Assembly (NCBI GenBank): GCA_964653455.1
Contig: CAZZFK010000003.1
Coordinates: forward strand, 60,819 to 124,818
Direction of reading: 5' to 3'
From: an uncultured bacterium
GTDB lineage: Bacteria; Margulisbacteria; Termititenacia; CAZZFK01
Length of the DNA stretch: 64,000 nt
Shown here: piece after piece, positions 1,707-17,748 of the stretch
Layout of the letters: each line of letters opens with the position of its first letter
How positions within the stretch are numbered: the stretch's first letter is position 1
Notes under the pieces: model-generated
The model's input: only the letters and a program-made list of their open reading frames with translations
What the model was told of the DNA's origin: nothing
The model's database searches: none
Position numbers and translations under genes: made by a program

Positions 1707-2319
1707 TTTTCTTCCCTGAGCCTTGTGACTGGCGCCGCATATCCTGCTGTTCTTTTTGCTTGAACGAGTTCAGGACCTGTTCCGCCTGTTTTTTCTTTTG
1801 ATCTTTTTGCTTGTCTTTTTTATCTTTCTGGTCTTTTTTCTTGTCGTTGCTTTGTCCCTGTGATTGTTTACGGGCAGCGGGACGCATTTTTTCAAGGATA
1901 CGCGCCAGCTCAAGGTTATATTTTGCATCCCTGTTCTGAGGATCATTTTTTAATGCTTTGATGTAATAGTCAATGGCGTTCTGAATATCGCCCTGTTCAA
2001 GATACATGGTGCCGATATTGTAATCGTTCCTGGACATGGTCTTTTTGTCGTGAGCGGTCTCCGCATAGCGCTTGTGCATATTGAACTTTTCACGGGCGTT
2101 ATCCGTATTGCCCTTGGCGTATTCGAGCAGCCCCTGGTTATAGACAATGAAAGGCTTTTTGCTGTGTATCTTCTGGTAGCTCTCATCTGCTTTATCGATA
2201 TTGCCTTTAAGCAAATACGCGTTCGCCTGCCGAATGCGCTGGTTATCCAGTATGCCGGCATGGGCATGGGTAGTGAACATCGTAATGAGCAGGATAGTGA
2301 TGAGCGCTGTTCTTTTCAT
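1687..2319 (-). CDS. batC: TPR protein, BatC-like
   Basis: Signal peptide MKRTALITILL (GAGG upstream), TPR motifs (YNQG, YNIG, ALKNDP..AKYNLELA), K/D/Q-rich linker, located between batB and batD. Confidence 0.8.
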   Translation of the reverse strand: MKRTALITILLITMFTTHAHAGILDNQRIRQANAYLLKGNIDKADESYQKIHSKKPFIVYNQGLLEYAKGNTDNAREKFNMHKRYAETAHDKKTMSRNDYNIGTMYLEQGDIQNAIDYYIKALKNDPQNRDAKYNLELARILEKMRPAARKQSQGQSNDKKKDQKDKKDKQKDQKKKQAEQVLNSFKQKEQQDMRRQSQGSGKKNVEKDW

Positions 2320-2330
2320 GTTCGTTATCC

Positions 2331-3299
2331 TCACAGTATGAACGAGATGCACAACATCAATATGCCGATGAAAAGAAAGACCTGGAACCGTTCGCTGTAC
2401 ATGGTCGAAACAGTGTTCTTGATCCCTACGCGTTTATAGTATTGCAGTTCCTGTATGATCTCTGAGAGCGGCTCACTGTTCTGGTTAAGCAGATAGACCT
2501 TGGATGTGGCCAGCGGTTGCAGGTTCTCAGGATGGATGCGGCTCACCACAACGGACCCTTTTTTATCTTTCTTGTACCCATGTACCGTACCGTTCTCGTC
2601 CAGCAACGGTATCGGTTGGCCGCCTTCAGTACCTACGCACACGGGCATGATCACTGCGCCTATTTCTGAGGCATCATCTTTTAACCCGTTCAGACCGCCT
2701 TCATGATCTTCCCCGTCGGTGAATATCATGATGACCTTATCCTGCGGGACTTTCGGATCGAAGGTCTCGAGGCATTTGGCGACCGCCGCATGGAGGTTCG
2801 TCCCTGCAGTGTTCTCTCGGGAGCCGACTATGGTCGTCATAAAAAGTTTCAGGGCTTCATAGTCGGTTGTGAGGGGTGTGATGGTCGTGGCCGAACCCGC
2901 GAAGGTCACCAGACTTACCCTGTCTCCCTGCAGTGTATCCAGCAGGCGGTTCACTTCCATGATGGTCTTTTCAAGGCGGGACGGATAGATATCCGGCGTG
3001 TACATACTGCTCGAAGTATCGATCGCAATGACAAGGTCCAGCCCTTTTTGCATGAACGGTTCCTGTTTGATACCCCATTGTGGGCGGAGCAGGGCGAGAA
3101 CGATGAATACCAGTCCCCCTACGAACAGAAGGCGGGCATTTCTTTTCGTCCCGGGTCCTCGTATCACTTTTTTGAGCGTATCCGCGCTCCCCAGCTTTTT
3201 TAGTCCTATATCGGAGGTGCGGTCAAAATGACCGAACGCGAACCACACCCCGGCAGGGATAAGGAGCAGCCACCATAATTTCAGTAACGCGATATTCAT
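2331..3299 (-). CDS. batB: vWA domain protein, BatB-like
   Basis: ALLRPQWG, MIDAS motif DTSSSM, FTDGEDHEG, N- and C-terminal TM segments. Confidence 0.85.
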   Translation of the reverse strand: MNIALLKLWWLLLIPAGVWFAFGHFDRTSDIGLKKLGSADTLKKVIRGPGTKRNARLLFVGGLVFIVLALLRPQWGIKQEPFMQKGLDLVIAIDTSSSMYTPDIYPSRLEKTIMEVNRLLDTLQGDRVSLVTFAGSATTITPLTTDYEALKLFMTTIVGSRENTAGTNLHAAVAKCLETFDPKVPQDKVIMIFTDGEDHEGGLNGLKDDASEIGAVIMPVCVGTEGGQPIPLLDENGTVHGYKKDKKGSVVVSRIHPENLQPLATSKVYLLNQNSEPLSEIIQELQYYKRVGIKNTVSTMYSERFQVFLFIGILMLCISFIL

Positions 3300-3315
3300 C
3301 GTATATTCCCTATGT

Positions 3316-4362
3316 TCATGGCCATATCTTTAGCACGGTGTTCGACAATACGAATTCCAGAATGAGCAGGCAAAGTCCGAACAGAACGAATCCGAAATAT
3401 CTTTCATCAAAACGGGTATGTACCACGTCCTTGATCTTGATCTTCTCCAGTGCGTTGATCTTTTTGAAGACTTCTCGCAGTTCTCCTGTATTCTTGGCCA
3501 GGAAATATTCACCTTGGGTCAGCCCTGCTATCTGTATCAATGCGTCCTGGTTGAGCTTTGTTAGCGCAAGGGAACCGTCCGGATTACGGGCGTACAGTTT
3601 CCCCTGACCGGGCACATATACCGGCATAGGGGCCCCCTCAGGTGAGCCGATACCGATAGTGTATATCTTCACGTTCATGTCGTTGGCCAGTTTTGCCGCA
3701 TCGATCGGATCGATCTCACCGCTGTTGCTTTCTCCGTCCGTGATCAGGATGATGACCTTGCTCTTTGCTTCCGACCTGCGTAAGCGGTTAAGGGCCGTGA
3801 CCTCTGCAAGTCCGATAGCCGTTGCTTCACCGGCCATACCGACCTTTATCCTTGAAAGCAGGTCCAGCAGTATGTCGTGGTCCAGTGTCAGCGGGCATTG
3901 GGTAAAACTGGTGCTGCCGAATACCACAAGGCCGAGGCGATCGTTCTTGCGGTCATAAATGAACTCTTTTACGACGTTCTTTGCCGCGGTCATGCGGTCA
4001 GGCTTCAGGTCCTCCGCCCACATGCTGCCAGAGGTATCCAGTGCGATCATCATATCGATACCTTCTTTATACAGAGGATCTGCACGTCCCGGGACCTGGG
4101 GCCGGGCCAGCGCTAATATAAGGAAGGCGAGCGCGAGAAGTTTGAGACCATCCAATATATAGTCTATCCATTGGAGATCCTGTTGTGATGAACGGGAGAT
4201 GGTATCGACGTTCGAATGTCCGAATACAGCACGCTGTTTTCGGTAATGAAGAAATTTCCATAAGCCGTGTCCGGGAAGTTTTGAACTTTTGCCGTACCAG
4301 ATATACCAGAGCACAGGCAGTATCAACAGGAAAAATAAAGCAAGAGGGTTCGCGAATTTCAT
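3316..4362 (-). CDS. batA: vWA domain protein, BatA-like
   Basis: MKFANP start, ALARPQ, DTSGSM, TAIG, ITDGESN, KIYTIGIG. Confidence 0.88.
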   Translation of the reverse strand: MKFANPLALFFLLILPVLWYIWYGKSSKLPGHGLWKFLHYRKQRAVFGHSNVDTISRSSQQDLQWIDYILDGLKLLALAFLILALARPQVPGRADPLYKEGIDMMIALDTSGSMWAEDLKPDRMTAAKNVVKEFIYDRKNDRLGLVVFGSTSFTQCPLTLDHDILLDLLSRIKVGMAGEATAIGLAEVTALNRLRRSEAKSKVIILITDGESNSGEIDPIDAAKLANDMNVKIYTIGIGSPEGAPMPVYVPGQGKLYARNPDGSLALTKLNQDALIQIAGLTQGEYFLAKNTGELREVFKKINALEKIKIKDVVHTRFDERYFGFVLFGLCLLILEFVLSNTVLKIWP

Positions 4363-5291
4363 GGTACGCGCTCCTCTTGCGGGTCAGTGATGGTCTGCGC
4401 AGGCTTCATTCGTTCGATAATATCCTGAGCATGTCTGATATATTCACGATCGTCATTAGCCTCGGGCCGGTATTTGGCGAATTTAACAAGATCTGCTTCG
4501 TTCAAAAGTCCGATCAAATGATCTTTGACGGGAATGTCTTTTATGTCGATCATCTTTGCTATTTCGCTCGTCGTGCGGTCCATGAGGTCCCGTCCTGAAA
4601 GGTCTAAAAAGAACTTCTTCAGTTTTTCCGAGGTCTCGATATAGAACATTTTGACATCGGCCTGTGCCGGAGGGACCAGTGTGCTGAAGTAGTCATGATA
4701 TTCCTGCCATATCTCGAGCGGTGTGCGGTGCTTTTTTATAAAGGGCAGTGAAAGAGCTCCGGTATCAAGCTGGTCTTTTAAATAGTGATAGAGAAAGAGG
4801 TTCCCAGCGATAAAGAAGAACAGTGTTGCGAGAATAAATATGTCCGAATAGGGGTTGATCGGTCTTTTCATCGGACGCGCATTGGGCGTTCCTGTGATCA
4901 GCGAGGATATGGTACAGGATAATGAACGGACGACATTTTCTTGGATATTGAACGTGGGGAACGTGATCGCCCCGGTCTGGAATGGTGTGATCCTGGTCAT
5001 ATATTTGAGCTTATTACCGTGAACCGTCACGGATGGCGTTATGATCTCAAATGAGTTGTTGTTTGAATTCCCGCCCGAAGTAAAAGAAAGCATAGGTATC
5101 GATAATGATGTTGTGCGGTCATAGGGTACAGTGACCTTGTACGTGATCATATCCCCGATATAGATCTTTTTTGGGGTCAGATGGGGTTGATATGCTATGT
5201 CCGCAAGACAGGAGAAAGCATGAAGCATAAAGCAGATGACATATAGCAGCATGTGAAGCACGTTCAGTGTACGTATCGTTTTCATGCTCAA
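4359..5291 (-). CDS. Bat-cluster membrane protein (BatD-like N-terminus, DUF4381-like C-terminus)
   Basis: Signal peptide, IGDxITY motif, central TM helix, C-terminal ADLVKFAKYRP typical of this operon position. Confidence 0.6.
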   Translation of the reverse strand: MSMKTIRTLNVLHMLLYVICFMLHAFSCLADIAYQPHLTPKKIYIGDMITYKVTVPYDRTTSLSIPMLSFTSGGNSNNNSFEIITPSVTVHGNKLKYMTRITPFQTGAITFPTFNIQENVVRSLSCTISSLITGTPNARPMKRPINPYSDIFILATLFFFIAGNLFLYHYLKDQLDTGALSLPFIKKHRTPLEIWQEYHDYFSTLVPPAQADVKMFYIETSEKLKKFFLDLSGRDLMDRTTSEIAKMIDIKDIPVKDHLIGLLNEADLVKFAKYRPEANDDREYIRHAQDIIERMKPAQTITDPQEERVP

Positions 5292-6169
5292 AACCTCTTG
5301 CGCGATGTGCGGCGTTTAAAAAAGGATATGATCTTCTCAAGATATGGTTCCCCGCAGGTCAGGTGAATGAAATCGCCCGTATTCTTGAGAAAAAGCTCTT
5401 TGAGCGACAGGAAGTTCTTTTGCGCTGCTTCTGCATATGCTTTGCGGAAGTTCGTATCTCTCGTATCGATGATGCGAGAAGCATCATGCTCCAGGTCCTT
5501 GATACGGAGATAGCCGAAGGAGGGTATGGTCTTTTCGAACGGATCGCCGATCAGGACCGGGATGACATCATGTTTTCGTGCCGTGATCTCGAAGGTCTTT
5601 TTATAATCGTCCGCGATGAAGTCCGAGAGTATAAAGACCACAGAACGGCGCTTGGTGATCAGGTTCAGATGTTCTAACGCGGCTTTGATATTTGTCTTTT
5701 TGTTAACCGGGGTGAAACTAATGACATCGCGTAGCAAGCGAAGTACATGTTTCCTCCCTTTTTTTGCAGGAATGAACTTCTCCACTTTGTCCGTAAAAAG
5801 CATCAGACCTGCCCGGTCATTGTTCTTGAGCGCTGTCAGGGAGAGCAGTGCCGCTATCTTTTGTGTCAGTTCTTTCTTGGTCCCGTCTTTTGTCCCCAGG
5901 TCCTGTGAGGCGCTCATATCCACCAGGATATATATATGAAGTTCACGCTCTTCCCGGAATATCTTCACGTGCGGGGTGCCGGTGCGCGCGGTCACGTTCC
6001 AGTCGATGAACTTGATATCATCGCCGACCTGATAGGGACGTACTTCCTGGAACTCTATCCCAAGGCCCCGGAACGCGGATTGATATTCTCCGGAGACCGT
6101 TGAATTGATGATACGGTTGGTCTGTATTTCGAGCTTTTTTACTTGGGCAAGTATATCTTTTGTGATCAT
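5288..6169 (-). CDS. DUF58 family protein
   Basis: GEYQSAFRGLGIEFQEVRPYQVGDDIKFIDWNVTAR, FREERE, DMSAS. Start moved to MITKDI. Confidence 0.92.
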   Translation of the reverse strand: MITKDILAQVKKLEIQTNRIINSTVSGEYQSAFRGLGIEFQEVRPYQVGDDIKFIDWNVTARTGTPHVKIFREERELHIYILVDMSASQDLGTKDGTKKELTQKIAALLSLTALKNNDRAGLMLFTDKVEKFIPAKKGRKHVLRLLRDVISFTPVNKKTNIKAALEHLNLITKRRSVVFILSDFIADDYKKTFEITARKHDVIPVLIGDPFEKTIPSFGYLRIKDLEHDASRIIDTRDTNFRKAYAEAAQKNFLSLKELFLKNTGDFIHLTCGEPYLEKIISFFKRRTSRKRF

Positions 6170-6177
6170 GGTGTTCT

Positions 6178-6283
6178 TGACCCCTCCCACCGCTTTCAGC
6201 GGTTCCCCCTCCCCAATGCCCTTACTAGCTTGCCCCGAGCAATGCCGAGGGGTATTGGGGAGGGGGCTAGGGGGTGAGGTTTG
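6178..6283. repeat. GC-rich REP-like palindromic element (family member 1)
   Basis: Stem CCCCCTCCCCAATGCCC...GGGTATTGGGGAGGGGG. Its left end GACCCCTCCCACC (6179-6191) is identical to 20653-20665. The inner 22-mer matches the 25.4 kb element at 18/22 positions. Confidence 0.75.
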
Positions 6284-7279
6284 TTACGGTACCTCGATCG
6301 TATCCAGTATCTTCTGGATAACGTCTTCAGAGGTCATATTTTCTGCTTCCGCTTCATAACTGATGATGACACGATGGCGGAGCACGTCCATGACGATCGA
6401 TTTCACATCATCTGGAGAGACGAAACCGCGGCCCTGCAGGAAGGCATGGGCCTTAGCGGCTTTGGTCAAATAGATGGAAGCGCGAGGAGAAGCTCCATAG
6501 GTGATGAGATTCTTGATGTTCAATTTATATTCTTCAGGTTCTCTGGTCGCAAGGACGATATCGAGGATATAGTCTTTGATCTTTTCATCGACATAAATAT
6601 CGTCAATGACACCTTGAACACGAATGATATCGGCAGGAGTTATGACCTTTTTGAGGTCCGCCGAATCAATGGACCGCTGAATGTCGATGATCTGTCGCTC
6701 TTCTTTACGTGAAGGATAGGATATCAAGAGCTTTAGCATGAAGCGGTCCACCTGCGCTTCGGGCAGAGGGTAGGTTCCTTCCTGTTCGATAGGGTTCTGG
6801 GTCGCAAGTACCAGGAACGGCTCGTTCAATCGATATGTCTCTTCACCCAGTGTCACCTGTTTTTCCTGCATGGCTTCAAGGAGTGCGCTCTGGACCTTGG
6901 CGGGTGCGCGATTGATCTCGTCGGCAAGTATTATATTATGGAAGACAGGCCCTTTTTTTATGGAAAAGTTCGTTGTCGCGGGGTTATAGATCATGGTCCC
7001 GATGATATCGGCAGGAAGCAAGTCGGGAGTGAACTGGATGCGTTTGAAAGAGCAATCGATGATCTGCGAAAGCGTTCTGATGATAAGCGTTTTGGCGAGA
7101 CCGGGGACCCCTTCGAGCAATATGTGACCTTTGCAGAAGAGCCCGATGAGTATCTTCTCGATGATGGTACGTTGCCCGACGATCACCTTGTTGAATTCTT
7201 TCATGACGTCAGCGATGAAGGCGGATTCTTTTTGTATGCGTGCGTTCAATTCCTGAATAGAGATGTCGTTAGTGCTCAT
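6284..7279 (-). CDS. moxR: MoxR family AAA+ ATPase
   Basis: LLEGVPGLAKT, RIQFTPDLLPAD, LADEINRAPAKVQSALLEAMQE, ATQNPIEQEGTYPLPEAQVDRF. Confidence 0.95.
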   Translation of the reverse strand: MSTNDISIQELNARIQKESAFIADVMKEFNKVIVGQRTIIEKILIGLFCKGHILLEGVPGLAKTLIIRTLSQIIDCSFKRIQFTPDLLPADIIGTMIYNPATTNFSIKKGPVFHNIILADEINRAPAKVQSALLEAMQEKQVTLGEETYRLNEPFLVLATQNPIEQEGTYPLPEAQVDRFMLKLLISYPSRKEERQIIDIQRSIDSADLKKVITPADIIRVQGVIDDIYVDEKIKDYILDIVLATREPEEYKLNIKNLITYGASPRASIYLTKAAKAHAFLQGRGFVSPDDVKSIVMDVLRHRVIISYEAEAENMTSEDVIQKILDTIEVP

Positions 7280-7566: not shown

Positions 7567-9765
7567 ATGGAGATATTGTCGAAGTTCGGTAAGTTCCTCG
7601 CTGATGTTTTTGTCGGTAGCGGTCTTCAGCTTCATCTCAATCCGGGTCTGCTTGTTATCGTAACGTTCGGGTGTTCTGTTCTGGCCCTGCTGTTCGCTCT
7701 CTATCTCGGGCTTATGGTCATGCATCAGGATGAGGGTTCGGATAAAATGAAAAAAATATCCTCATCGATCCGTACCGGTGCTAAAGCATATTTGAAGCGT
7801 CAGTATTCGGTCATTGCGGTCTTCTTTCTGGTCGTTTTCTTCATCCTGTTGGCTATGGCATTAAAGGGCTATCTGACGATATTCGTACCGTTCGCCTTTT
7901 TGACCGGCGGTTTTTTCTCCGGTCTTTCCGGTTTCATCGGTATGACCATGGCCACATGCTCAAATGCCAGGACCGCTTCCGGGGCCATGAAAAGCCTTAA
8001 CTCCGGCCTGCGCATAGCGTTCTCGGCCGGTGCGGTCATGGGCCTTGTTGTTGTCGGTCTCGGGCTTTTTGATCTCAGTGTATGGTACGCGATATTGAAC
8101 AAGGTCTATGAGCATCTTCCGGTCGCAGAGAAGATCAAGAACATCACCGGAGCAATGCTGACCTTCGGCATGGGCGCATCCTCGATGGCGCTTTTTGCCC
8201 GTCTTGGCGGCGGTATCTTCACGAAAGCTGCTGACGTTGGAGCCGATCTTGTCGGTAAAGTTGAGGCTGGTATTCCTGAAGATGACCCGCGTAATCCTGC
8301 TGTTATCGCGGACAACGTCGGTGATAACGTCGGTGACGTTGCCGGCATGGGTGCAGATCTGTATGAATCTTATGTCGGTTCTATCGTAGCGACCATGGCT
8401 CTCGGTGCCGCGGCTTTTGCTCAGTACGGGATGTCTTTCCAGAGCGTTACGGTGCCCCTGGCCATGGCTGCTGTCGGAGTCATCGCTTCTATTCTTGGTA
8501 CGTTCTTTGTACGTTCCGGTGAAAAAGCGGATCAGGGCGTGTTATTGTGGGCTCTTCGCAAGGGAACGTTCATGACAGCGTTCCTCGTGCTTGTATTCTC
8601 CTATCTGGTGATCAAGTTCACTCTGGGCATGGCCTTTATCGGGATATACGGTTCGGTACTTTCCGGGCTGCTTGCGGGTATAATCATCGGTCTGGTGACG
8701 GAATATTTCACTTCGGATAAATATGCTCCGACCCAGCATCTTGCCGCTTCTGCGACAACAGGTCCTGCAACGGTCATCATCGCAGGCATCTCTCTGGGCA
8801 TGAGTTCCACGGTCGTTCCGGTCATCACCGTTTGTGTAGCCACTGTTGCCGCATATGTGTTCGCCGGCGGTCTGGCGAACTATGCGTTGGGATTGTACGG
8901 TGTCGGTATCTCTGCGGTCGGCATGCTTTCAACGCTCGGTATCACGTTGGCGACAGATGCCTATGGTCCGGTCGCTGATAATGCCGGCGGAATAGCACAG
9001 ATGAGCAAATTGCCTCCGAAGGTGCGTGAACGTACGGATGCTCTTGATTCCCTCGGGAATACGACCGCTGCGACCGGTAAAGGGTTCGCTATCGGTTCAG
9101 CTGCTTTGACGGCAATGGCGTTGATAGCTGCTTATCAGGAAGAGATCCAGTTCGCGGCGCACCGCATGGGTTTGCATGATTTCACCATGAACATCAGTAT
9201 CATGAACTTGCCGGTACTTATCGGTCTGTTCATCGGCGCGATGATGCCGTTCGTTTTCTCCGGTCTTACCATGGCCGCGGTCGGTCGTGCCGCTCAGCAG
9301 ATCGTTGTTGAGGTGCGCCGTCAATTCAAACAGATCAAAGGATTGATGCAGGGCAAAGCTGAGGCCGATTACGCACGTTGCGTGGCGATCTCGACCGGTG
9401 CTGCTCAAAAGGAAATGGTATTCCCGTCGCTCCTGGCGATCATCGTTCCTATCCTTGTGGGATACTTGCTCGGTCCGAGCGCTGTTGTCGGCCTGCTCGG
9501 CGGGGCAATGGCCAGCGGTTTCGTGCTCGCGGTATTCATGGCCAATGCGGGCGGTGCCTGGGATAACGCCAAGAAGTATATTGAGTCCGGTAAGTTCGGC
9601 GGAAAAGGTTCAGATGCTCATAAAGCAGCTGTGACCGGTGATACGGTCGGTGATCCTTTCAAAGATACGTCCGGTCCTTCACTGAACATCCTGATCAAGC
9701 TTATGTCCATGGTCTCCATTGTTTTCGCTGCGTTCCTTGCTGCGAACTCATTGAAGCTGTTCTAA
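7567..9765 (+). CDS. hppA: Membrane-integral K+-dependent pyrophosphatase with Na+,H+-PPase signature
   Basis: [26 protein letters not shown] (K+-dependent Ala), [20 protein letters not shown], plus [13 protein letters not shown] and TFGMGAS. Confidence 0.95.
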
Positions 9766-9792
9766 GCATAGACAGGGTAATAGTCAGATATA

Positions 9793-9829
9793 AAGCACCC
9801 CACGGCAGATAGCTGTGGGGTGTTTTTTT
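9793..9829 (+). terminator. Intrinsic terminator after hppA
   Basis: CACCCCACGGC-AGATA-GCTGTGGGGTG stem followed by a T run. Confidence 0.85.
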
Positions 9830-9891: not shown

Positions 9892-9939
9892 GGGTCCAAT
9901 TGCACTAAGCGATTGGAGGCATTTGATGGTCGGGCCGCC
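9892..9939 (+). ncRNA. Riboswitch aptamer, nhaA-I-like (Li+/Na+ class), copy 1
   Basis: GGG-[TCCAATTGC ACTAA GCGATTGGA hairpin]-GGC-ATTTG-ATGGTCGGGCC-GCC. It lies between a promoter and a terminator, and a covarying second copy is at 16502-16547. The class assignment is from my recollection of the nhaA-I consensus, not a search. Confidence 0.75.
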
Positions 9940-9967
9940 ATCTGAACACATTCAGATGGTTTTTTTT
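9938..9967 (+). terminator. Riboswitch expression-platform terminator
   Basis: CCATCTGAA-CACA-TTCAGATGG perfect 9-bp stem + T8. The first two C residues belong to the aptamer 3' end. Confidence 0.85.
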
Positions 9968-10009: not shown

Positions 10010-10156
10010 ATGGACGAAAATAACATTCCAGTAAAAACACAAAAAGAAGAAGAACGATCCAGGCGCGGTTTTGATTATAATTGGTTCGCGGTCCTGGGCG
10101 TTGTTTTATATATTATTTTGATCATTGTGTTGCAGCGTGTTTTCCATATCATATAG
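10010..10156 (+). CDS. Small single-TM membrane protein, 48 aa (unannotated)
   Basis: AAGGAGG RBS, then MDENNIPVKTQKEEERSRRGFDYNWFAVLGVVLYIILIIVLQRVFHII*. Its stop overlaps the AGGAG RBS of the next gene. Confidence 0.7.
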   Translation: MDENNIPVKTQKEEERSRRGFDYNWFAVLGVVLYIILIIVLQRVFHII

Positions 10157-10165
10157 GAGCGGCTG

Positions 10166-12481
10166 TTGCTCAATAGTATGAAACTGCCAATTTTTTTAAA
10201 AAATGCGCTCAATACGGTACGTGCATTATACAGATATATATTTGATCTCACGGAGGTTTCTGCTCAGCATCGAGGGCATAATGATCCCGGACGTCTCCTG
10301 ATCGTTTCGAACCGTCTGCCGGTAACTGTTTCTATCAGTAGCAGCAACGTTGCGTATGAACCGAGCTCCGGAGGTCTGGCGACCGGGCTTGCTTCATATA
10401 TCAAAAATAGTGAACACAAGAACAGTTCCCTCTGGATAGGGTGGCCCGGCAGCACGATATGCGAAGAGAAAAAACTCCAGGTCCAGACCGATCTCTTTCA
10501 TGACCATGCCTGTGTTCCTGTATATCTTGATGAGACTGCAATGGATCAGTTCTATCATGGGTTCTGCAATAAAACGCTCTGGCCCCTTTTCCATTATTTT
10601 CAGGTATTCACTGAATTCCGTGATGATTTTTGGAAGAATTATGAGGAGGTCAATCAACGTTTCTGTGACGCGGTACTGGAACATGCCGGACCGAACGATA
10701 CGGTATGGGTGCATGACTATCATCTGATGCTTTTACCAAAAATGCTGCGGGAAAAAATCCCCAAATTGAAAATAGTGTTCTTTCTGCACATCCCGTTCCC
10801 GACCTATGAGATATTCCGGTTATTGCCCAAGAACTGGCGCGAATCGATCCTGTCCGGTCTTTTGGGTGCGGATGTTATTGGGTTCCATACGCATAGCGAT
10901 GTTCAGTATTTCCTGAGCTCGGCGCTGCGTATCCTTGGTATTGAACATACAACAGGACAATTGCGCTATGACGGACGTCTTATAAAGGTCGACGCGTTCC
11001 CTATGGGGATAGATTTTCAGAAATTCAACTCTGCGGCCAGCTCCTCCGCGGTCACAGCTGAAAAGGATACGATCCGTAATAGCTTTGGGAACAGAAAGCT
11101 CGTTCTTTCTCTTGACAGGCTGGATTATACAAAGGGGATCAAACAACGGCTGCTCGGGTTTGAACGGTTCATTGATGAGCATCCTGAGTGGGTCGGTAAC
11201 GTGTCACTGATGATGGTCATTATCCCGTCGCGTATCGCGGTCGGCTCCTATCAGGACATGAAAAAACAGCTTGATGAAGAGATCGGGCGTATAAACGGCC
11301 GGTTCACGAAACTTGATTGGACCCCGATCATATACCGATATAAGAGCATTCCTTTTACGGAGCTTGTCGCGCTGTACGCCGCGGCAGATGTCGCATTGGT
11401 CACACCCTTGAGGGACGGGATGAACCTTATAGCCAAGGAGTATCTGGCCAGCAAGGCTGATGCGACCGGAGTCCTGATCTTAAGCGAGATGGCGGGGGCT
11501 GCGAAAGAATTAACTGAAGCGATCATCATCAATCCGAACAACACTGAAGAAATGTCGGCCGCTATCCATACAGCCCTGAATATGCCCGTTGAGGAGCAGC
11601 GACGTCGCAATGAACACTTGCGCTCACGGCTTGAGCGCTATGATGTGGCGCGTTGGGCAAAGAACATACTGGATAAGGTGAATGAGGTCTTTGATATACG
11701 TATACGGTCCACTTCTGCGGTATTTTTGGGCAATGAACAGCGTGAATTCGTCAAACGAGCGCTCCGCATGTCCGTCAAAAAGCTCATACTGCTCGACCAT
11801 GACGGCACGTTGGTCCCTTTTATGGATGATCCGATACTTGCAGAACCAGGACCGAATGTTATCTCGCTGCTCTCAAAGTTATGCAACGTGACGGGAACAG
11901 ATGTGGTCATTATCAGTGGACGTGACAAGGCGACCCTTGAATCGTGGTATGGAGGATCGCCCGTGCAGCTGGTAGCCGAGCATGGTGCGTCTGTCAGGAA
12001 TAAAAATGGTGTTTGGCGAACGAAAAAACACCTGCATAGCGGATGGAAACAGGACCTTCGCCCGATATTCGAGAAATATGCCGATGCACTCCCGGGGTCA
12101 TTTGTGGAGGAAAAAGAACATTCACTTGTCTGGCATTATCGTATGGCGGACCTGGAACATGGGGCCATGAAGAAGAAAGAGCTGATAGATGATCTGGTAC
12201 ACTTTACCGCGAACGTTGATCTGAGCGTGCTGCAGGGGAACAAGATCGTTGAGATACGCAATAGTACAGTGAACAAAGGCTCGACGGTAGGTGAGTTAGT
12301 GAGCAAGAAAGCGTATGACCTTTGTATCGCGATCGGGGATGATGTCACCGATGAAGACATGTTCAGGGCCGTTCCCAAAGGCTCCATCACAATAAAGGTC
12401 GGCACGGGAGATACGGCCGCTGCTTATTATACAAAAAGCTATCGTGATGTTATTGACCTGATAAAGAATTTGACGGATTGA
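10166..12481 (+). CDS. otsAB: Bifunctional trehalose-6-phosphate synthase/phosphatase (GT20 + HAD-IIB)
   Basis: LLIVSNRLP, SSGGLA, WVHDYHL, FFLHIPFP, DRLDYTKGI, TPLRDGMNLIAKEY, LSEMAGAA, then DHDGTL and IGDDVTDEDMF. Confidence 0.95.
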   Translation: MLNSMKLPIFLKNALNTVRALYRYIFDLTEVSAQHRGHNDPGRLLIVSNRLPVTVSISSSNVAYEPSSGGLATGLASYIKNSEHKNSSLWIGWPGSTICEEKKLQVQTDLFHDHACVPVYLDETAMDQFYHGFCNKTLWPLFHYFQVFTEFRDDFWKNYEEVNQRFCDAVLEHAGPNDTVWVHDYHLMLLPKMLREKIPKLKIVFFLHIPFPTYEIFRLLPKNWRESILSGLLGADVIGFHTHSDVQYFLSSALRILGIEHTTGQLRYDGRLIKVDAFPMGIDFQKFNSAASSSAVTAEKDTIRNSFGNRKLVLSLDRLDYTKGIKQRLLGFERFIDEHPEWVGNVSLMMVIIPSRIAVGSYQDMKKQLDEEIGRINGRFTKLDWTPIIYRYKSIPFTELVALYAAADVALVTPLRDGMNLIAKEYLASKADATGVLILSEMAGAAKELTEAIIINPNNTEEMSAAIHTALNMPVEEQRRRNEHLRSRLERYDVARWAKNILDKVNEVFDIRIRSTSAVFLGNEQREFVKRALRMSVKKLILLDHDGTLVPFMDDPILAEPGPNVISLLSKLCNVTGTDVVIISGRDKATLESWYGGSPVQLVAEHGASVRNKNGVWRTKKHLHSGWKQDLRPIFEKYADALPGSFVEEKEHSLVWHYRMADLEHGAMKKKELIDDLVHFTANVDLSVLQGNKIVEIRNSTVNKGSTVGELVSKKAYDLCIAIGDDVTDEDMFRAVPKGSITIKVGTGDTAAAYYTKSYRDVIDLIKNLTD

Positions 12482-12509: not shown

Positions 12510-12629
12510 ATGACATTAGCAGGATGGATATTTATGATCTCATACTGGACACTGATCTTTGCTGTTTTGATCTTTTGTTTCGGATATATCTTTGTTCAAG
12601 AGCGAGCGAAATACAAGAAAAAGCGATAA
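12510..12629 (+). CDS. Small membrane protein, 39 aa (unannotated)
   Basis: GAGGGAG RBS, then MTLAGWIFMISYWTLIFAVLIFCFGYIFVQERAKYKKKR*: a hydrophobic helix with a basic tail. Confidence 0.7.
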   Translation: MTLAGWIFMISYWTLIFAVLIFCFGYIFVQERAKYKKKR

Positions 12630-12724
12630 TCGCCCGGGCATAAGATATGTATTCCGTATCCTTTCAAAAACAACCCCTACGGCTTATAATGAGTTCGGCA
12701 AGATAGACATTGGGGGTATATGCT

Positions 12725-14188
12725 ATGGTCTCCATTCAACGAAAGTCCTTAAGGATGAGCCCCGACCCCAAAAGGGTCGTTGCGCGCCATTATATGACGT
12801 ACGACAGTGCGTGTGTCAGAACGGTCGCCGAGCAGGTCCTGAATATGTCTGCCGATGAAGTGAGCAAAATGTTCAGGGATATTTTGGAGCACTATTCTTC
12901 CCGTCATCGTAGTATCACGAAGGTGCTGAAATACCATTTTGAAAGAGCCATGAGCGACGGCAATACCGGACTTTCTCCGGATGCTTTCAGCGAACAGCAG
13001 CAACTGGTGTTGGGGGCCTATTTCACGATGGAATACTCTATCGAATCCGCGGCCTTTTTCAATCCTTCCATCGTTGAAGCTCCGGACCAGAGCGGACTCT
13101 CTGCCGGTGAGAAAAAGGTCATAGTAAGTTTTCGGGCTGTCGGGGAGGGCCATATTTCTTCCCTAGTGTTCAGAGAAGGTATTATCAACAGAAGAAATGA
13201 CCTGAAAATAAACCCCAATCGCAACAATATCGTAGATATGCCCGAAAAGATAACCAGGTTCATCTATGAAAAGGAAAAATTCGTTCAAAAGATGAAGGAG
13301 ATGGCACTGCCTGAAAAGATCTGTCTACTTGCCGAAAAAAAACTGAAGGATACCTTTGTGTATGGAAAGCTGCGTGATTGGCTGGAGGCCTGTTCTCTCG
13401 ATCCCGCATTGGATGAAAAGGAAAAAGAAGTGTTGCCTCAGGTGCTGTGGCTGGCAAAGTCGCACTACGAAGTATCTTTTTCTTTAGATACATCCATATC
13501 GGAACGGGTCCTTTTCCCGATCTCATACCGGGAAACGAACGGGATCGAAGATGTTCGTTTTGTGCGTTTTATTGAAGATACCGGAGAGCCCGTCTACTAT
13601 GGTACCTACACGGCATATAATGGCAGTTCGATACTCCCCAAACTTTTGAGAACAAAAGATTTTTACACGTTCACGATATTGCCGATACATGGTCCGCACG
13701 TACAGAACAAAGGTTTAGCACTGTTCCCCAGAAAGATAAACGGTAAATATGTCATGTTGTCGCGCCTGGACGGCATCAATAATTACCTTATGTATTCCGA
13801 TGATATCTATGTCTGGCCGGAAAAAGCGGTCTTGCTCCAAAGACCCGAATTTCCCTGGGAGTTCATGAAGGTCGGCAACTGCGGCTCTCCGCTGGAGACA
13901 CCTCAGGGCTGGCTTTTGATCACACATGGAGTAGGCCCAATGCGCCAGTATTGTCTGGGTGCGACGCTGCTAGACCTGAAAGACCCCTCAAGAACGATCG
14001 GACGGTTAAAACAACCGCTATTGATCCCGAATTCCGAAGAAAGAGAAGGGTATGTCCCGAACGTGGTCTATTCCTGCGGGAGCATGATACACGGAGATGA
14101 TCTGATCATTCCCTACGGGATGGCGGATCAATGCTCCACCTATGCGGTCGTTCCGCTCAAAAAGCTTCTACAAGAATTGACCGCGTAA
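12725..14188 (+). CDS. GH130-like glycosidase/phosphorylase (PH1107-related, five-bladed propeller)
   Basis: EYSIESAAFFNPSIV, YYGTYTAYNG, NKGLALFPRKING, VGNCGSP, THGVGP, REGYVPNVVYSCG. A separate promoter-like TTTCAA-17 nt-TATAAT lies upstream. Confidence 0.8.
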   Translation: MVSIQRKSLRMSPDPKRVVARHYMTYDSACVRTVAEQVLNMSADEVSKMFRDILEHYSSRHRSITKVLKYHFERAMSDGNTGLSPDAFSEQQQLVLGAYFTMEYSIESAAFFNPSIVEAPDQSGLSAGEKKVIVSFRAVGEGHISSLVFREGIINRRNDLKINPNRNNIVDMPEKITRFIYEKEKFVQKMKEMALPEKICLLAEKKLKDTFVYGKLRDWLEACSLDPALDEKEKEVLPQVLWLAKSHYEVSFSLDTSISERVLFPISYRETNGIEDVRFVRFIEDTGEPVYYGTYTAYNGSSILPKLLRTKDFYTFTILPIHGPHVQNKGLALFPRKINGKYVMLSRLDGINNYLMYSDDIYVWPEKAVLLQRPEFPWEFMKVGNCGSPLETPQGWLLITHGVGPMRQYCLGATLLDLKDPSRTIGRLKQPLLIPNSEEREGYVPNVVYSCGSMIHGDDLIIPYGMADQCSTYAVVPLKKLLQELTA

Positions 14189-14193
14189 CGTCA

Positions 14194-16446
14194 TTATTTC
14201 TTTGAAAGATCGTACAATAGTTCTTCATGTGCGATCAATACGGTCATGTGCGCAATAGAGAAGGCCAGCGTGCTTTCAGCCCCCTGGTTTCGGCTGACCC
14301 TGTCTTTCTCCAGTCCATCATTACAGCCTTTCGTTTCAAAGTCGTATAACGGCATGCGTAAAAAATTCTCACCCAGGAACCAGTTGTAGGCCAGGTACAT
14401 TTTTTCCAGAAAAGAGCGGTCTTTGGTCAGCGAGTAGGCCGTGTGATACAGCAGCACCATGCCCATAGCATTGACCGGCTGTTGCGCCGCAAGCGCGGGT
14501 TTCCCGTCTTTCGGATACCAGCCGTTACTGCCAATGACAGAAAGATAGTCGTTCTTGAACTTCGTTCTTTCCAGAAAAGCGAGCGCTTCCAGCGCAATGG
14601 TCTTATACTCTTCATTACGCAATACTTTGTAGGAATGCAGTAAGGCCAGGGGGATCATGCCGTTGGCATAGGCGATGACAGATTCGAACCAGTGCCAATC
14701 TTCGGTGCGTTCGCTCTTATATGCGCTCACGAGGAGCTGTGCCTGTTTTTTCATGATCTGTGCGCAGCGTTCGTTGTCCGGATATCTGTACAGGAAAAAA
14801 GCCAGCCCAATGATGCAGAACGCAATGGCCCGGATGCTTTTGATGTTGTCTATGTTCGGAAGGGCTTTTTCGAACATCTCCCGGCCTATCTGGAACAACA
14901 CTTCATTGGGCGGATAATGTATGAGATAGCCCAGGGCCCAAACGGACCTCCCGAATGAATCCTCTGTCCCTTTTTCATCAAGGAATTTCCGGTCAAAGCT
15001 CAGGAAATTCCGGAACGTGCCGTCCTCGTTCTGCATGTACATGAGGAATTTCAGATATATGCCTATCAGCCGGAATGCTTCGGGGTCCTCTTCCTGCCGG
15101 TAGGCCATGATCGTTGTGATGAGCGCCCGCGCGTTATCGTCCGTGCAATAACCTTCCTTGAGATTTGGGATGCTATAGCGCGCGTGCTGTACGATGCCGG
15201 TATCATCGGTCAGCCGGATGATATGTTCCAGGCTGAACTCAGGCATACCTGTGGGCGTGAAAGGAAGGGGACTGTCGATGTTCTTGACCTGCTTGGACTG
15301 CTGCTTTAAACAGCGATTGAACTCAGAAAGATATTCTTTTCCGATCACAGACCATGTCGTTCTTCTGCCATAGGCATAGGCAAGCCTGCGGGTATGTTCA
15401 AGTTGCCTCGGATTATCCAGCAGCTGCATGAGAATACCAGATAATTGCTGGGAATTATTAAAATCGAACAGGTATCCTCGGTCATCGGCCAGGACCTCCT
15501 CGGCATGCCAGTAGGGCGTGGAAATGACCGCGGCGCCGGAACCGATGGCATATGAGAGCGTCCCGCTGGTGATCTGGCGTTTGTTCAGATAGGGCGTGAT
15601 ATAGATGTCCGCAGCGGAAAGATACAGGACCAATTCTTTCTCGCTCACGAATTCATCATGAAAATGGACATGATCTTCCAGCTCCAGTTTCTCCACAAGC
15701 CTGATGAGATAGTTGCGGTATTCCTCCCCGGAATATTTAAGGACATGCGGATGGGTCTTGCCGAGGATGATATAGGTAAGGTTCGGATGTTTTTTTATGA
15801 GGTCCGGCAGCGCACGTATCACGGTCTCTATCCCCTTATTACGGTTCAAGAGGCCGAAGGTCAGGAGCGTTTTTTTATCCTCCAGATTGAGCGCCTGTTT
15901 GCAGCGCAGCCCATGCTTATAATTGATGTCCGGGACACCATGTTGTATGAGCTTGATCTTTTCTGCGGGTACACCGTAGGTGTTTGTCAAGAATTGGATC
16001 GCTTTATTGCTCATGACGATAAGTTTCTCCGCTTTTGCGGCTATCTCCTGAATGATTATCTTTTCATTGAATGACGGAGCTTCAAGGACCGTATGCAGTG
16101 TGGCATAGACCGGGATCTTTAGATTATGGATCAGCGAGAGGAGATATATACCGCTTTCTCCGCCATAGATACCATATTCGTGTTGAATGAGGCAGATATC
16201 CGCTCCGCTATAGTTTATATAGCCCGCCGCTTCGATATAGTCGCGTTGATGTTCCTGGCGTATGACACATTCCACGATCTCGGGATATGAATACCTGTCC
16301 ATCGGAGATTGCATGGCGGTAACGAACACATCTGCCTTAGGCAAATGCTGTTTGACGAGAGCTTTGAGCAGATTTTGAGAGAAGGTCGCGATACCGCATT
16401 CTCGGGGAGGGTAGGTACAGATAAGGGCTATTTTGAGCTTTTTCAT
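14194..16446 (-). CDS. GT4 glycosyltransferase fused to a C-terminal (alpha/alpha)6-like domain
   Basis: TYPPRECGIATFS, IQHEYGIYGG, FGLLNRNKGIE, YITPYLN..QITSGTL, STPYWHAEE, then TDDTGIVQHA, YCTDDNARAL, NQGAESTL. Start MKKLKIA follows an AAGGA RBS. Confidence 0.85.
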   Translation of the reverse strand: MKKLKIALICTYPPRECGIATFSQNLLKALVKQHLPKADVFVTAMQSPMDRYSYPEIVECVIRQEHQRDYIEAAGYINYSGADICLIQHEYGIYGGESGIYLLSLIHNLKIPVYATLHTVLEAPSFNEKIIIQEIAAKAEKLIVMSNKAIQFLTNTYGVPAEKIKLIQHGVPDINYKHGLRCKQALNLEDKKTLLTFGLLNRNKGIETVIRALPDLIKKHPNLTYIILGKTHPHVLKYSGEEYRNYLIRLVEKLELEDHVHFHDEFVSEKELVLYLSAADIYITPYLNKRQITSGTLSYAIGSGAAVISTPYWHAEEVLADDRGYLFDFNNSQQLSGILMQLLDNPRQLEHTRRLAYAYGRRTTWSVIGKEYLSEFNRCLKQQSKQVKNIDSPLPFTPTGMPEFSLEHIIRLTDDTGIVQHARYSIPNLKEGYCTDDNARALITTIMAYRQEEDPEAFRLIGIYLKFLMYMQNEDGTFRNFLSFDRKFLDEKGTEDSFGRSVWALGYLIHYPPNEVLFQIGREMFEKALPNIDNIKSIRAIAFCIIGLAFFLYRYPDNERCAQIMKKQAQLLVSAYKSERTEDWHWFESVIAYANGMIPLALLHSYKVLRNEEYKTIALEALAFLERTKFKNDYLSVIGSNGWYPKDGKPALAAQQPVNAMGMVLLYHTAYSLTKDRSFLEKMYLAYNWFLGENFLRMPLYDFETKGCNDGLEKDRVSRNQGAESTLAFSIAHMTVLIAHEELLYDLSKK

Positions 16447-16485
16447 GGCCTGGTATCCTTTTTTGATGATCATTAAGAACCATCT

Positions 16486-16510
16486 AAAAAAAACGGCACA
16501 TGGTGGCCCG
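16486..16510 (-). terminator. Putative expression-platform terminator of riboswitch copy 2
   Basis: Minus strand CGGGCCAC-CAT-GTGCCG bulged hairpin + T8, built partly from aptamer nucleotides. Confidence 0.55.
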
Positions 16511-16547
16511 ACCATCTGCAAACCTCTAGTACCGGAATACTAGACCC
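16502..16547 (-). ncRNA. Riboswitch aptamer, nhaA-I-like (Li+/Na+ class), copy 2
   Basis: GGG-[TCTAGTA TTCCGG TACTAGA hairpin]-GGT-TTGCAG-ATGGTCGGGCC-ACC. Same architecture as copy 1 with a compensatory GGC/GCC to GGT/ACC change. Located in the 5' UTR of the GT4 gene. Confidence 0.75.
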
Positions 16548-16622: not shown

Positions 16623-17705
16623 TTAGGCTCTTGTTCCGTACACTTTCCAGAACGTCACAATAACAGAAACGATCGGTATCGCGAGGACCATCCCCCAAAG
16701 ACCGAAGACCTCACCGCCGCACAGCAGTATCATGAAAATAACGAGCGGGGAGAAGGCGGTCGCCTTACTGAACACCTGCGGCGCGATGATGTTCGCCAGA
16801 ATGACCTGACGTATCGCAAAAAAGATCACTATTGGCATGACCAATGCCGGGGAATGCAGCCACGTGATCAGAAGGATAGGGACTATCGCGATGATCGGTC
16901 CGAACAAGGGGATGAACTCCATGAGCCCCGTGAGCACGCCGAAGATGAGCGAGAACTTAAGCCCGATAATGACCATGAAAAGGAACGTTGAGAACCCGCT
17001 AATGAACGCCAGGAACATGAGCCCTCCGAAATAATTGACGAGCTGGGTATATGCCGACGTAAGGAATTTCTTTTCACGCAGGGAAGCTTCCTGTTCCATG
17101 AATTTCTGTATCTTTTCCAGTATCGAATGGCGTTCCGAAAGAAGATAGATGCACATGATGAACGCTATCAGAAAATTAAAGAGGAAAGAAGTGATGCTCG
17201 AAGCGGACTTGATCACACCGTCGAACAGCGAGGAAAAGAACTGTCCGCTTTGGGCGACGTATTTCGACGTCAACTCGCTGAAAGAAACGTGTGTGAGGTC
17301 TTCTATGACCTTTTGTATCGAAGCGGAGTTCGTCTGGATCTCGGCAACTTTTACCGCAAATCCTTTTTCAAAGGCCGGTATCGCGCTGGAAAGGTCCATC
17401 CCCTGGGTGAGCACCTTTGGCAGGAAGAGCACGGTGAGTACAAGCATAATGGATATGCACGCCAACAGGATGAGTATCGACGCGATATGTGAATGGGTCA
17501 TCTTTTCAAGACGCGCAGCAGCGGGACGTAAGAACAAGTACAGGACGCAGGCGGTCATTGTTATGGAAAACGCGGTCGGGGCAAAGAATTTAAGCCCGAG
17601 AATAGCGATAAGAATGAAGAACCATCGACGTTTGGATATTATCAACGATACCAGTTCCTGAAACAGTTGTGAAATATTCCCTGCTGTTCTTTTTTGCTTT
17701 GCCAT
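16623..17705 (-). CDS. AI-2E family transporter
   Basis: Multi-TM protein with GLMEFIPLFGPIIA and GGEVFGLWGMVLAIP motifs. Start moved to MAKQK. Confidence 0.85.
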   Translation of the reverse strand: MAKQKRTAGNISQLFQELVSLIISKRRWFFILIAILGLKFFAPTAFSITMTACVLYLFLRPAAARLEKMTHSHIASILILLACISIMLVLTVLFLPKVLTQGMDLSSAIPAFEKGFAVKVAEIQTNSASIQKVIEDLTHVSFSELTSKYVAQSGQFFSSLFDGVIKSASSITSFLFNFLIAFIMCIYLLSERHSILEKIQKFMEQEASLREKKFLTSAYTQLVNYFGGLMFLAFISGFSTFLFMVIIGLKFSLIFGVLTGLMEFIPLFGPIIAIVPILLITWLHSPALVMPIVIFFAIRQVILANIIAPQVFSKATAFSPLVIFMILLCGGEVFGLWGMVLAIPIVSVIVTFWKVYGTRA

Positions 17706-17748
17706 GACCGTTCCTTTCTGTATCTGTAGAACGTGGGTGTCTGGGCTG

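Follow-up and report, generated by a model that had tools for sequence, protein, structure and literature searches.

A tail-to-tail gene pair beside two riboswitch copies

We examined a locus within a 64,000-nucleotide stretch of DNA from an uncultured bacterium of the Margulisbacteria (contig CAZZFK010000003.1 of assembly GCA_964653455.1; this whole stretch is 'the window' hereafter, and all positions are counted from its first letter). The locus contains a pair of genes, one encoding a long GH130-family protein and the other a fusion of a GT4 glycosyltransferase domain with a C-terminal six-hairpin, or (alpha/alpha)6, domain, together with two copies of the nhaA-I riboswitch aptamer (Rfam family RF03057): one upstream of a trehalose synthesis (otsAB) unit and the other in the leader of the fusion gene (Table 1). 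The stop codons of the pair (TAA at 14186-14188 and TTA at 14194-14196) are separated by 5 bp, a gap too small to hold a terminator. An earlier note on this DNA, made from its letters alone, had described this layout and assigned the domains involved. The coordinates and stop codons agree with that description, as do Pfam (for GH130 and GT4) and an AlphaFold2 (AF2) model (for the (alpha/alpha)6 barrel) with the assignments. The OtsA-OtsB fusion encoded next to the pair scored 985 bits against NCBIfam NF011071 (cut-off 634) and contains the Pfam domains GT20 and Trehalose_PPase.

Table 1. Positions of genes, domains and regulatory elements at the locus (aa, amino acids; ORF, open reading frame)
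Feature	Position	Strand	Remarks
Membrane pyrophosphatase (H+/Na+-type)	7567-9765	+	Directly 5' of riboswitch copy 1
Strong 15-bp terminator	9792-9826		After the pyrophosphatase gene, parting it from riboswitch copy 1
nhaA-I (RF03057) aptamer, copy 1	9892-9943	+	Upstream of otsAB unit; 48.9 bits, E 1.3e-6
Intrinsic terminator of copy 1	9937-9967	+	5' arm overlaps P2 3' arm
48-aa ORF	10010-10156	+	Between riboswitch 1 and otsAB; one predicted membrane helix (translation)
OtsA-OtsB fusion (bifunctional trehalose-6-phosphate synthase/phosphatase)	10166-12481	+	Likely start ATG 10179
39-aa ORF	12510-12629	+	Between otsAB and GH130 gene; one predicted membrane helix
Sigma-70-like promoter match	12662-12690	+	TTTCAA 12662-12667, 17-nt spacer, TATAAT 12685-12690
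Long GH130-family gene	12725-14188	+	487 aa; predicted beta-1,2-mannoside phosphorylase type
GT4 + six-hairpin fusion gene	14194-16446	-	750 aa; Pfam and AF2 model
GT4 (GT-B, retaining) domain of fusion	15307-16446	-	Residues 1 to ~380; Pfam
(alpha/alpha)6 six-hairpin domain of fusion	14194-15294	-	Residues 385-750 plus stop; AF2 model
GCCG then U8 tract	16486-16497	-	Atypical expression platform, directly after P2 of copy 2
nhaA-I aptamer, copy 2	16498-16547	-	5' leader of GT4 fusion gene; 34.0 bits
AI-2E family transporter	16623-17708	-	Upstream of riboswitch 2, same strand; Pfam PF01594, E 3.9e-49

The long GH130 protein resembles beta-1,2-mannoside phosphorylases

The Pfam GH130 profile (PF04041) matches only residues 259-483 of the long GH130 protein (E 4.5e-31; 108 bits against a cut-off of 26). 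The AF2 model (predicted local distance difference test score, pLDDT, 89) contains a complete propeller with the five-bladed fold, in addition to a helical N-terminal stretch of ~100 aa and an inserted helical segment at approximately residues 183-243. Since an N-terminal motif (M-x-I-x-V-x-R-K...P-D-x-x-R-V) is shared with 32 homologues, we take the ATG at 12725 to be the true start of the gene. The top 35 Foldseek matches in the PDB were all GH130 proteins, the best of them being Teth514_1788, a beta-1,2-oligomannan phosphorylase (E 1.7e-20; template modeling (TM) score 0.76 on the target), and the closest matches by both sequence and fold are beta-1,2-oligomannan and mannobiose phosphorylases. 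Scores against the curated beta-1,2-mannobiose phosphorylase equivalogs of NCBIfam fall far below their cut-offs (152 against 550 and 143 against 450), and the long GH130 protein is therefore no equivalog of those enzymes and represents a separate subfamily.

Active-site residues were mapped by alignment to Uhgb_MS and 32 homologues. Residues E275 and D276 correspond to E136 and the catalytic D137 of Uhgb_MS; D276 lies within an invariant GIED(V/A)R motif, at the position of the catalytic proton-donor aspartate (D104 in UhgbMP, D137 in Uhgb_MS). K329 and R347 correspond to K184 and R202 of the same enzyme and H401 to the phosphate-binding histidine, with R347 and H401 invariant across 33 homologues. 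Within GH130, the E/K pair denotes beta-1,2 specificity, and the combination of Arg and His denotes phosphorylases (Li et al. 2020, PMC7660257). On these rules the protein is predicted to be a cytoplasmic phosphorylase specific for beta-1,2 linkages. With known GH130 phosphorylases the protein shares the five-bladed propeller, the Glu and catalytic Asp, the +1 subsite Lys, the phosphate-binding Arg and His and the lack of a signal peptide. It differs from them in sequence (~22-24% identity over the propeller), in being ~180 residues longer, with its N-terminal helices and helical insert, in having K or Q at the position equivalent to R242, and in belonging to a large subfamily of its own, with members of ~490 aa that sometimes carry a receiver domain.

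Beta-1,2-mannoside phosphorylases are reversible, and all characterized beta-1,2-specific GH130 members show weak GDP-mannose transferase activity (PMC12814180). A synthetic role is for that reason possible, and the long GH130 enzyme may build the product of the pair as well as degrade it. The division of labor envisaged in the earlier note, in which the GT4 fusion makes a glycoside and the GH130 enzyme turns it over, is too simple for a protein with the residue set of these reversible enzymes.

Many homologues of the long GH130 protein (P0132, P0138, P0145, P0231 and others) are ~620 aa in length and carry a C-terminal response-regulator receiver domain, which points to control of the enzyme by phosphorylation; these homologues stem from Aminicenantes, Marinimicrobia and Bacteroidota. 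No signal peptide or transmembrane segment was found in the GH130 protein (the N-terminus of which is not hydrophobic) or in the GT4 fusion, and both proteins look cytoplasmic. A candidate second GH130 gene in the window (37106-39301, + strand) was rejected, as it encodes a REC-PAS-PAS-HisKA_2-HATPase hybrid sensor kinase that had clustered via its receiver domain only.

The partner protein fuses a GT4 domain to a six-hairpin barrel

Pfam GT4 domains span residues ~98-354 of the fusion protein (PF00534, 74.6 bits against 26.4; PF13439, 31.0 against 28.5; PF13692, also over its cut-off), and the C-terminal ~370 aa match no Pfam family. Judging from these profile matches, the N-terminal part can be regarded as a bona fide GT4 domain. 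Its nearest solved relatives by profile, all of them weak matches, are the sucrose-phosphate synthase (SPS) Tll1590, MshA, PimA and PimB'. The fusion reaches no NCBIfam equivalog (best score 50 bits against a cut-off of 400).

Residues 385-750 were modelled by AF2 as an (alpha/alpha)6 barrel (pLDDT 87). Foldseek matched it to YPO2471 (7tem; E 2e-11), to GH9 exo-glucosaminidases and to cellobiose 2-epimerase/AGE enzymes. YPO2471, a protein of unknown function that is also found by profile (E 7.7e-14), is the sole sequence-level relative of this domain with a structure. Pfam matches of the domain (GH88, C5-epimerase and GH127) are sub-threshold only, and the fold similarity has TM scores of ~0.6-0.7 at 11-15% identity, so that no significant family-level match assigns it to the AGE/cellobiose 2-epimerase, GH88, GH9 or GH127 families. 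A sucrose-phosphate synthase/invertase-like or trehalose-synthase/trehalase-like fusion was considered and rejected, trehalases and GH100 invertases lying outside the top 50 fold matches. Because of its linkage to the GH130 enzyme, we read the fusion as mannose-related rather than of the sucrose or trehalose type. The six-hairpin domain also occurs as a stand-alone protein (~350-390 aa) or fused to a GFO/IDH/MocA oxidoreductase (P0502) or an alpha/beta-hydrolase (P0498), and comprises more than 2000 clusters at 50% identity (E <= 1e-10). A GFO/IDH/MocA gene adjoins the long GH130 gene in one related locus (L030).

The pair recurs across phyla in varied genomic surroundings

At E <= 1e-10 there are at least 8000 homologues of the fusion and at least 8000 of the long GH130 protein. 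We counted pairing in 61 fetched loci for which the sequence downstream of the fusion homologue runs to 2.5 kb or more: 35 contain a long GH130 gene, 8 a short GH130 gene only and 18 neither, so that some GH130 gene accompanies the fusion in 43 of the 61. The loci cover Bacteroidota, Verrucomicrobiota, Chloroflexota, Deltaproteobacteria and others. Common co-occurrence, which the earlier note had put forward, is thus borne out by these counts, and its description of the pair as uncharacterized also proved accurate for what is a genuine and conserved association. No characterized member of either protein family was found, and literature searches that combined GH130 with compatible solutes, mannosylglucosylglycerate, GT4 clusters or osmotic and salt terms gave no account of the pair; archaeal mentions of GH130 in this literature are unrelated to it. 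A scan of metagenome contigs for closer relatives gave only homologues of at most 53% identity.

The arrangement of the two genes varies. In Verrucomicrobiota they are co-directional and ~5-200 bp apart. Since the convergent layout of the window is not conserved across phyla, the antisense control by convergent overlap that had been suggested for it is speculation. A four-gene version (fusion, short GH130, second GT4, long GH130) is present in a related locus, L029, and in a metagenome-assembled genome of Deltaproteobacteria (L108/L109). The only other recurrent neighbors are a second GT4 gene (~340-350 aa) and a mannose-1-phosphate guanylyltransferase-like gene that lies immediately before the fusion in loci of the Firmicutes type and hints at GDP-mannose as donor. 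In the Aeribacillus-type loci of this kind (L023, L083-L094) the guanylyltransferase-like gene (~3955-4998 in L083) is separated from the fusion by 3 nt, and no GH130 gene is present within the fetched flanks. Flanking contexts are otherwise diverse (aconitase/isocitrate dehydrogenase, Zn ABC transporters, the trp operon), and neither export nor polymerase genes recur among the neighbors of the pair. The recurrent GH130, GT4 and guanylyltransferase neighbors, the varied flanks and the lack of recurrent export or polymerase genes together point to a self-contained cytoplasmic mannose module.

A partial precedent exists in Thermoanaerobacter, in which one gene cluster combines GH130 genes with those for a guanylyltransferase and an alpha-mannosyltransferase of GT4 (PMC4264767). 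The present system is similar in linking GH130 with GT4 and, in some lineages, with a mannose-1-phosphate guanylyltransferase; it differs in that its GT4 domain is fused to a six-hairpin domain, its GH130 protein is of the long type, an ion riboswitch lies upstream and neither an ABC transporter nor a GH5 gene is present.

Both aptamers retain the nhaA-I core and combine Li+-I and Na+-II features

The gathering score of RF03057 is 37 bits, and copy 1 lies above it (48.9 bits with the covariance model). Both copies keep the conserved core of the family, consisting of a 5' GGGU, the P1 hairpin, an AGG after P1 and a P2 stem with a CGGGCC loop. A 17-nt core (GATGGTCGGGCCRCCAT) is present twice in the window, as compared to 0.00 expected occurrences, with copy 2 the same as copy 1 except at the R position. 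The P2 stem of copy 2 holds one G-G mismatch and one U-A pair. The P1 sequences are wholly different among the window copies and those of L029, yet each of them pairs. We consider copy 2 to be a real element because GGGU, AGG and CGGGCC are kept, its 17-nt core is held in common with copy 1, and an orthologous element is present in L029. A scan of the whole window with Rfam (E <= 1) identified no riboswitch copies beyond these two.

The nhaA-I RNAs have been described as a Li+-selective class, Li+-I (White et al. 2022, PMC9646797), of which rare variants with a terminator platform (Na+-II) respond to Na+; terminator-type Na+-II variants were reported from Deltaproteobacteria only, upstream of genes of unknown function (PMC9646797). 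RF03057 is the family of Li+-I and Na+-II, and is distinct from the classic Na+-I (DUF1646) riboswitch. Using the supplementary oligonucleotides of that study, we placed the specificity position (C54 of the Desulfobulbus propionicus construct) directly before the CGGGCC loop, on its 5' side. The validated Na+-II aptamer, from D. propionicus, has C there and both validated Li+-I aptamers have U; the two window copies and the two from L029 all carry U, and none has the C of Na+-II. The C54U mutant of the D. propionicus aptamer responds to Li+, Na+ and NH4+ (PMC9646797). The pair that closes P1 after GGGU is C-G locally and in D. propionicus, U-G in the L029 copy of the mscS leader, and G-C in the Li+-I aptamers. 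The aptamers are hybrids in which the Li+-I specificity U is combined with a Na+-II-like P1-closing pair and terminator platform.

When compared to the Na+-II element of D. propionicus (PMC9646797), the local elements have in common GGGU, P1, AGG, P2 with its CGGGCC loop and the P1-closing C-G pair, a terminator that draws its 5' arm from the loop and 3' arm of P2 (copy 1 and the two L029 elements), and downstream genes that are osmotic or of unknown function rather than nhaA. They differ in the U that replaces C before the loop, in the platform of copy 2 and in their host, which is Margulisiibacteriota-like. With Li+-I they share the family match, the specificity U (as in the P. monteilii and R. 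eutropha aptamers) and the presence of otsA and a putative glycosyltransferase among the associated genes; typical Li+-I members, in contrast, occlude the ribosome-binding site of nhaA and have a G-C pair closing P1, as opposed to the terminator (in copy 1), sugar-metabolism genes and C-G pair found here. Genes associated with nhaA-I RNAs have already been tabulated and include otsA in 16 cases and a 'putative glycosyl transferase' in 5, and the authors suggested that the otsA-associated copies might sense Na+ (PMC9646797, Supplementary Table I). The association of this riboswitch with a glycosyltransferase is, as a bare fact, already in the literature.

The two copies have different expression platforms

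The terminator of copy 1 is formed by the arms GCCATCTGAA and TTCAGATGGT, which are joined by CACA and followed by T8. The minimum free energy (MFE) fold of copy 1 has the architecture of the validated D. propionicus Na+-II element. Folding indicated a common design for copy 1, both L029 copies and D. propionicus, in which P1 is accompanied by a strong terminator that competes with P2, its 5' arm being composed of the P2 loop and 3' arm, with a U run after it. This design identifies copy 1 as a predicted anti-termination ON switch.

The MFE fold of copy 2 consists of P1 and a P2 stem extended by 3 bp, followed by CG and U8. Two weak competing stems, GGC(C)AC-CAU-GUGCC and CGGUAC/GUGCCG, can also be drawn. 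In constrained ensembles the U8 tract pairs with the A6-GG of the ribosome-binding site regardless of whether the aptamer is formed, and in the full-leader fold the ribosome-binding site and AUG are paired with the 5' half of the aptamer. A translational ON switch for copy 2 was considered and is unsupported, the ribosome-binding site staying paired to U8 with or without the aptamer. Given that the validated anti-terminator design is absent from copy 2, its on/off logic is unreadable from sequence.

The earlier note had also proposed that the GH130 gene is transcribed separately, from a promoter of its own. The TTTCAA-17-TATAAT site is indeed present (a 10/12 match, which our scan reads as TTCAAA, 16 nt, TATAAT); promoter-like sites occur in the region at the frequency expected by chance, however (11 found against 12.4 in shuffled sequence), and because such sites are not enriched the match is no evidence for separate transcription. 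No terminator was found on the + strand between the otsAB stop (12481) and position 12725, such that read-through from the riboswitch-1 unit is possible. The GH130 gene may therefore be co-transcribed with otsAB under riboswitch 1, an arrangement that would place both members of the pair under the same signal.

The riboswitch link extends to one close relative

An nhaA-I element lies upstream of the fusion gene in two of seven close lineages: the window itself and L029, in which the fusion gene is 72% identical and the orthologous aptamer occupies positions 5703-5751. A second nhaA-I copy in L029 (11588-11635) precedes genes for MscS, a GH15 trehalase-like protein and an OtsAB-like protein beside the cluster. 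Considered together with otsAB in the window, this neighborhood indicates that two lineages set the module beside ion-regulated osmotic genes. The relatives that lack the riboswitch have identities of 77%, 73%, 68%, 59% and 55%. No riboswitch was detected in L028, L030, L032, L104, L105, L106 or L108 at E <= 0.1 to 1, and a fuzzy search for the core in 109 loci (954 kb) matched L029 alone.

Proposed function of the pair and alternative explanations

We propose that the two proteins constitute a cytoplasmic module for the synthesis and phosphorolysis of a mannoside, and that in this organism the module has come under Na+/Li+-responsive control together with trehalose; we would put the probability of this reading at roughly 45%. 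The GT4 domain would take a sugar from a nucleoside diphosphate (NDP)-sugar, with GDP-mannose the foremost candidate, and transfer it to a small acceptor, and the six-hairpin domain would bind, trim or isomerise the resulting product. The long GH130 enzyme would add or remove beta-1,2-linked mannose with alpha-mannose-1-phosphate/phosphate, or possibly GDP-mannose, and as product the module would yield a soluble glycoside that contains mannose or a short beta-1,2-mannoside. With the copy 2 aptamer located in the GT4 leader, and the copy 1 anti-terminator controlling otsAB and perhaps reading through into GH130, a rise of cytoplasmic Na+ (or Li+) could cause this product to accumulate, or to be mobilised, along with trehalose. 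Of the two ions, Na+ is the likelier trigger on physiological grounds, otsAB and MscS being the targets.

A number of observations weigh against this reading. Copy 2 scores 34.0 bits, under the gathering score (E 0.0049, for the whole window against all Rfam families); the copy of the riboswitch that the earlier note had placed on the GT4 gene thus stands on its core and its L029 orthologue, with a score that falls short of the cut-off. Copy 2 also lacks the canonical terminator that would compete with P2, having weak competitors only, and thermodynamic modelling revealed no ligand-dependent exposure of its ribosome-binding site. All four local aptamers have U instead of C at the Na+-II position, and their hybrid nature makes the ligand unassignable from sequence. 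For these reasons (the Li+-I-type U, and copy 2 without a P2-competing terminator) the salt-induced GT4 product of the earlier note does not follow from the riboswitch. The R242-equivalent contact to phosphate or nucleotide is K382 here and Q in most homologues, and the nearest characterized relatives of the GT4 domain are remote (profile E 1e-7 to 1e-8); the donor, acceptor and product named above are guesses, and the direction of flux, the ligand and the logic of copy 2 are proposed rather than observed. Finally, five of the seven nearest lineages (L028, L104, L030, L105 and L108) have no riboswitch ahead of the fusion, nor, at the gathering threshold, do 12 distant loci, and the pair is frequent among taxa of soil, peat and fresh water.

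These last two distributions bear on the osmotic role that had been put forward for the pair. It is favored by otsAB under the same riboswitch class and by the pyrophosphatase and AI-2E neighbors, but with the riboswitch missing from five of seven close relatives and from all distant loci, osmoadaptation is at most a lineage-specific use; the prevalence of the pair in soil, peat and freshwater argues that it is not the general role. Across phyla, a soluble mannoside or reserve cycle is more likely than a dedicated osmolyte pathway. The mannogen of Leishmania, a stress-related carbohydrate buffer for which cytoplasmic propeller enzymes of family GT108, similar to GH130 in fold, carry out the synthesis and phosphorolysis of beta-1,2-mannosides (PMC12814180), might serve as a model of how the pair works, although by analogy only, its enzymes being eukaryotic and of a different CAZy family. 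No intracellular bacterial beta-1,2-mannan was found in the literature searched. That the pair represents a bacterial counterpart of the mannogen cycle, or produces a new beta-mannoside compatible solute, with a cytoplasmic mannoside pool that is built and phosphorolysed as needed, occurs in thousands of genomes of many phyla and, in some lineages, is turned on directly by cytoplasmic Na+/Li+ via a hybrid Li+-I/Na+-II riboswitch, is a broader idea that we consider doubtful.

The placement of copy 2 under ion control could be mistaken if that copy is degenerate or has the opposite logic, such that the extended P2, CG and U8 terminate transcription and the ligand is inert or represses the GT4 gene. 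The sub-threshold score and the G-G mismatch in P2 are consistent with this, as are an MFE fold unlike those of copy 1, both L029 copies and D. propionicus, with no strong competitor before U8, and a ribosome-binding site that is paired whether or not the aptamer is forced. However, the nucleotides whose mutation inactivates the D. propionicus switch, namely AGG (mutant M2) and the first two nucleotides of the CGGGCC loop (M3), are intact, the core matches that of copy 1 outside the R position, weak competing stems exist, and the orthologous L029 leader retains the canonical anti-terminator; we regard degeneration or inversion of copy 2 as unlikely. A different kind of alternative keeps the enzymology and discards the ion signal. 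Here beta-1,2-mannosides would be salvaged or catabolised to alpha-mannose-1-phosphate, which would then pass via GDP-mannose to the GT4 enzyme, and the riboswitch would be linked to the module by coincidence. GH130 enzymes that share this signature are phosphorolytic, the Thermoanaerobacter cluster of GH130, guanylyltransferase and GT4 has been interpreted in this manner (PMC4264767), and Firmicutes-type loci have a guanylyltransferase-like gene ahead of the fusion. Yet genes for sugar transporters, secreted mannanases or solute-binding proteins do not recur beside the pair in 109 loci, nor does the window have any adjacent to it, and an ion-sensing leader together with an otsAB neighbor would be hard to explain, which leaves salvage an improbable account.

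Least probable of the explanations considered is one in which the GT4 fusion builds a surface or lipid-linked glycan, or glycosylates protein, and the GH130 enzyme remodels the product, with no soluble osmolyte involved. Most GT4 enzymes are annotated as functioning in cell-wall biosynthesis, homologues of the fusion are named likewise in the source databases, and PimA and PimB', enzymes acting on phosphatidylinositol, are among its nearest GT4 relatives of solved structure. Against such an envelope function, neither protein has a signal peptide or membrane segment, the phosphorylase-type residues imply a cytoplasmic, phosphate-dependent reaction, and no flippase, polymerase or polyprenyl-phosphate transferase recurs nearby in contexts that vary widely.

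An ion sensor in cis and trehalose neighbors are among the few clues to the role of two very large, multi-phylum protein families. Were the product a mannogen-like reserve or a new osmolyte, bacterial stress physiology would gain a pathway, and new catalysts that form beta-mannosides would become available. The locus also takes terminator-type nhaA-I riboswitches beyond Deltaproteobacteria, and its hybrid aptamers bear on how Li+/Na+ selectivity is encoded.

Other features of the window

The 48-aa ORF at 10010-10156 is preceded by a strong AAGGAGG ribosome-binding site, and it and the 39-aa ORF, each with its membrane helix, flank otsAB within the riboswitch-1 transcription unit. Some members of the AI-2E family, to which the transporter upstream of copy 2 belongs, are Na+(Li+)/H+ antiporters, an activity that would suit an ion theme. 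A Bat-type aerotolerance operon (1687-7279, - strand), comprising genes for a MoxR ATPase, a DUF58 protein, BatA/BatB-like von Willebrand-factor-A proteins and a TPR protein, has nothing to do with the mannoside and riboswitch findings. The ~60 best named matches of the TrpE encoded in the window are assigned to Candidatus Margulisiibacteriota, Saganbacteria or WOR-1, with identities of up to 75%. The sequencing runs found to contain the locus were all DNA runs from a wastewater metagenome, with no RNA run among them.

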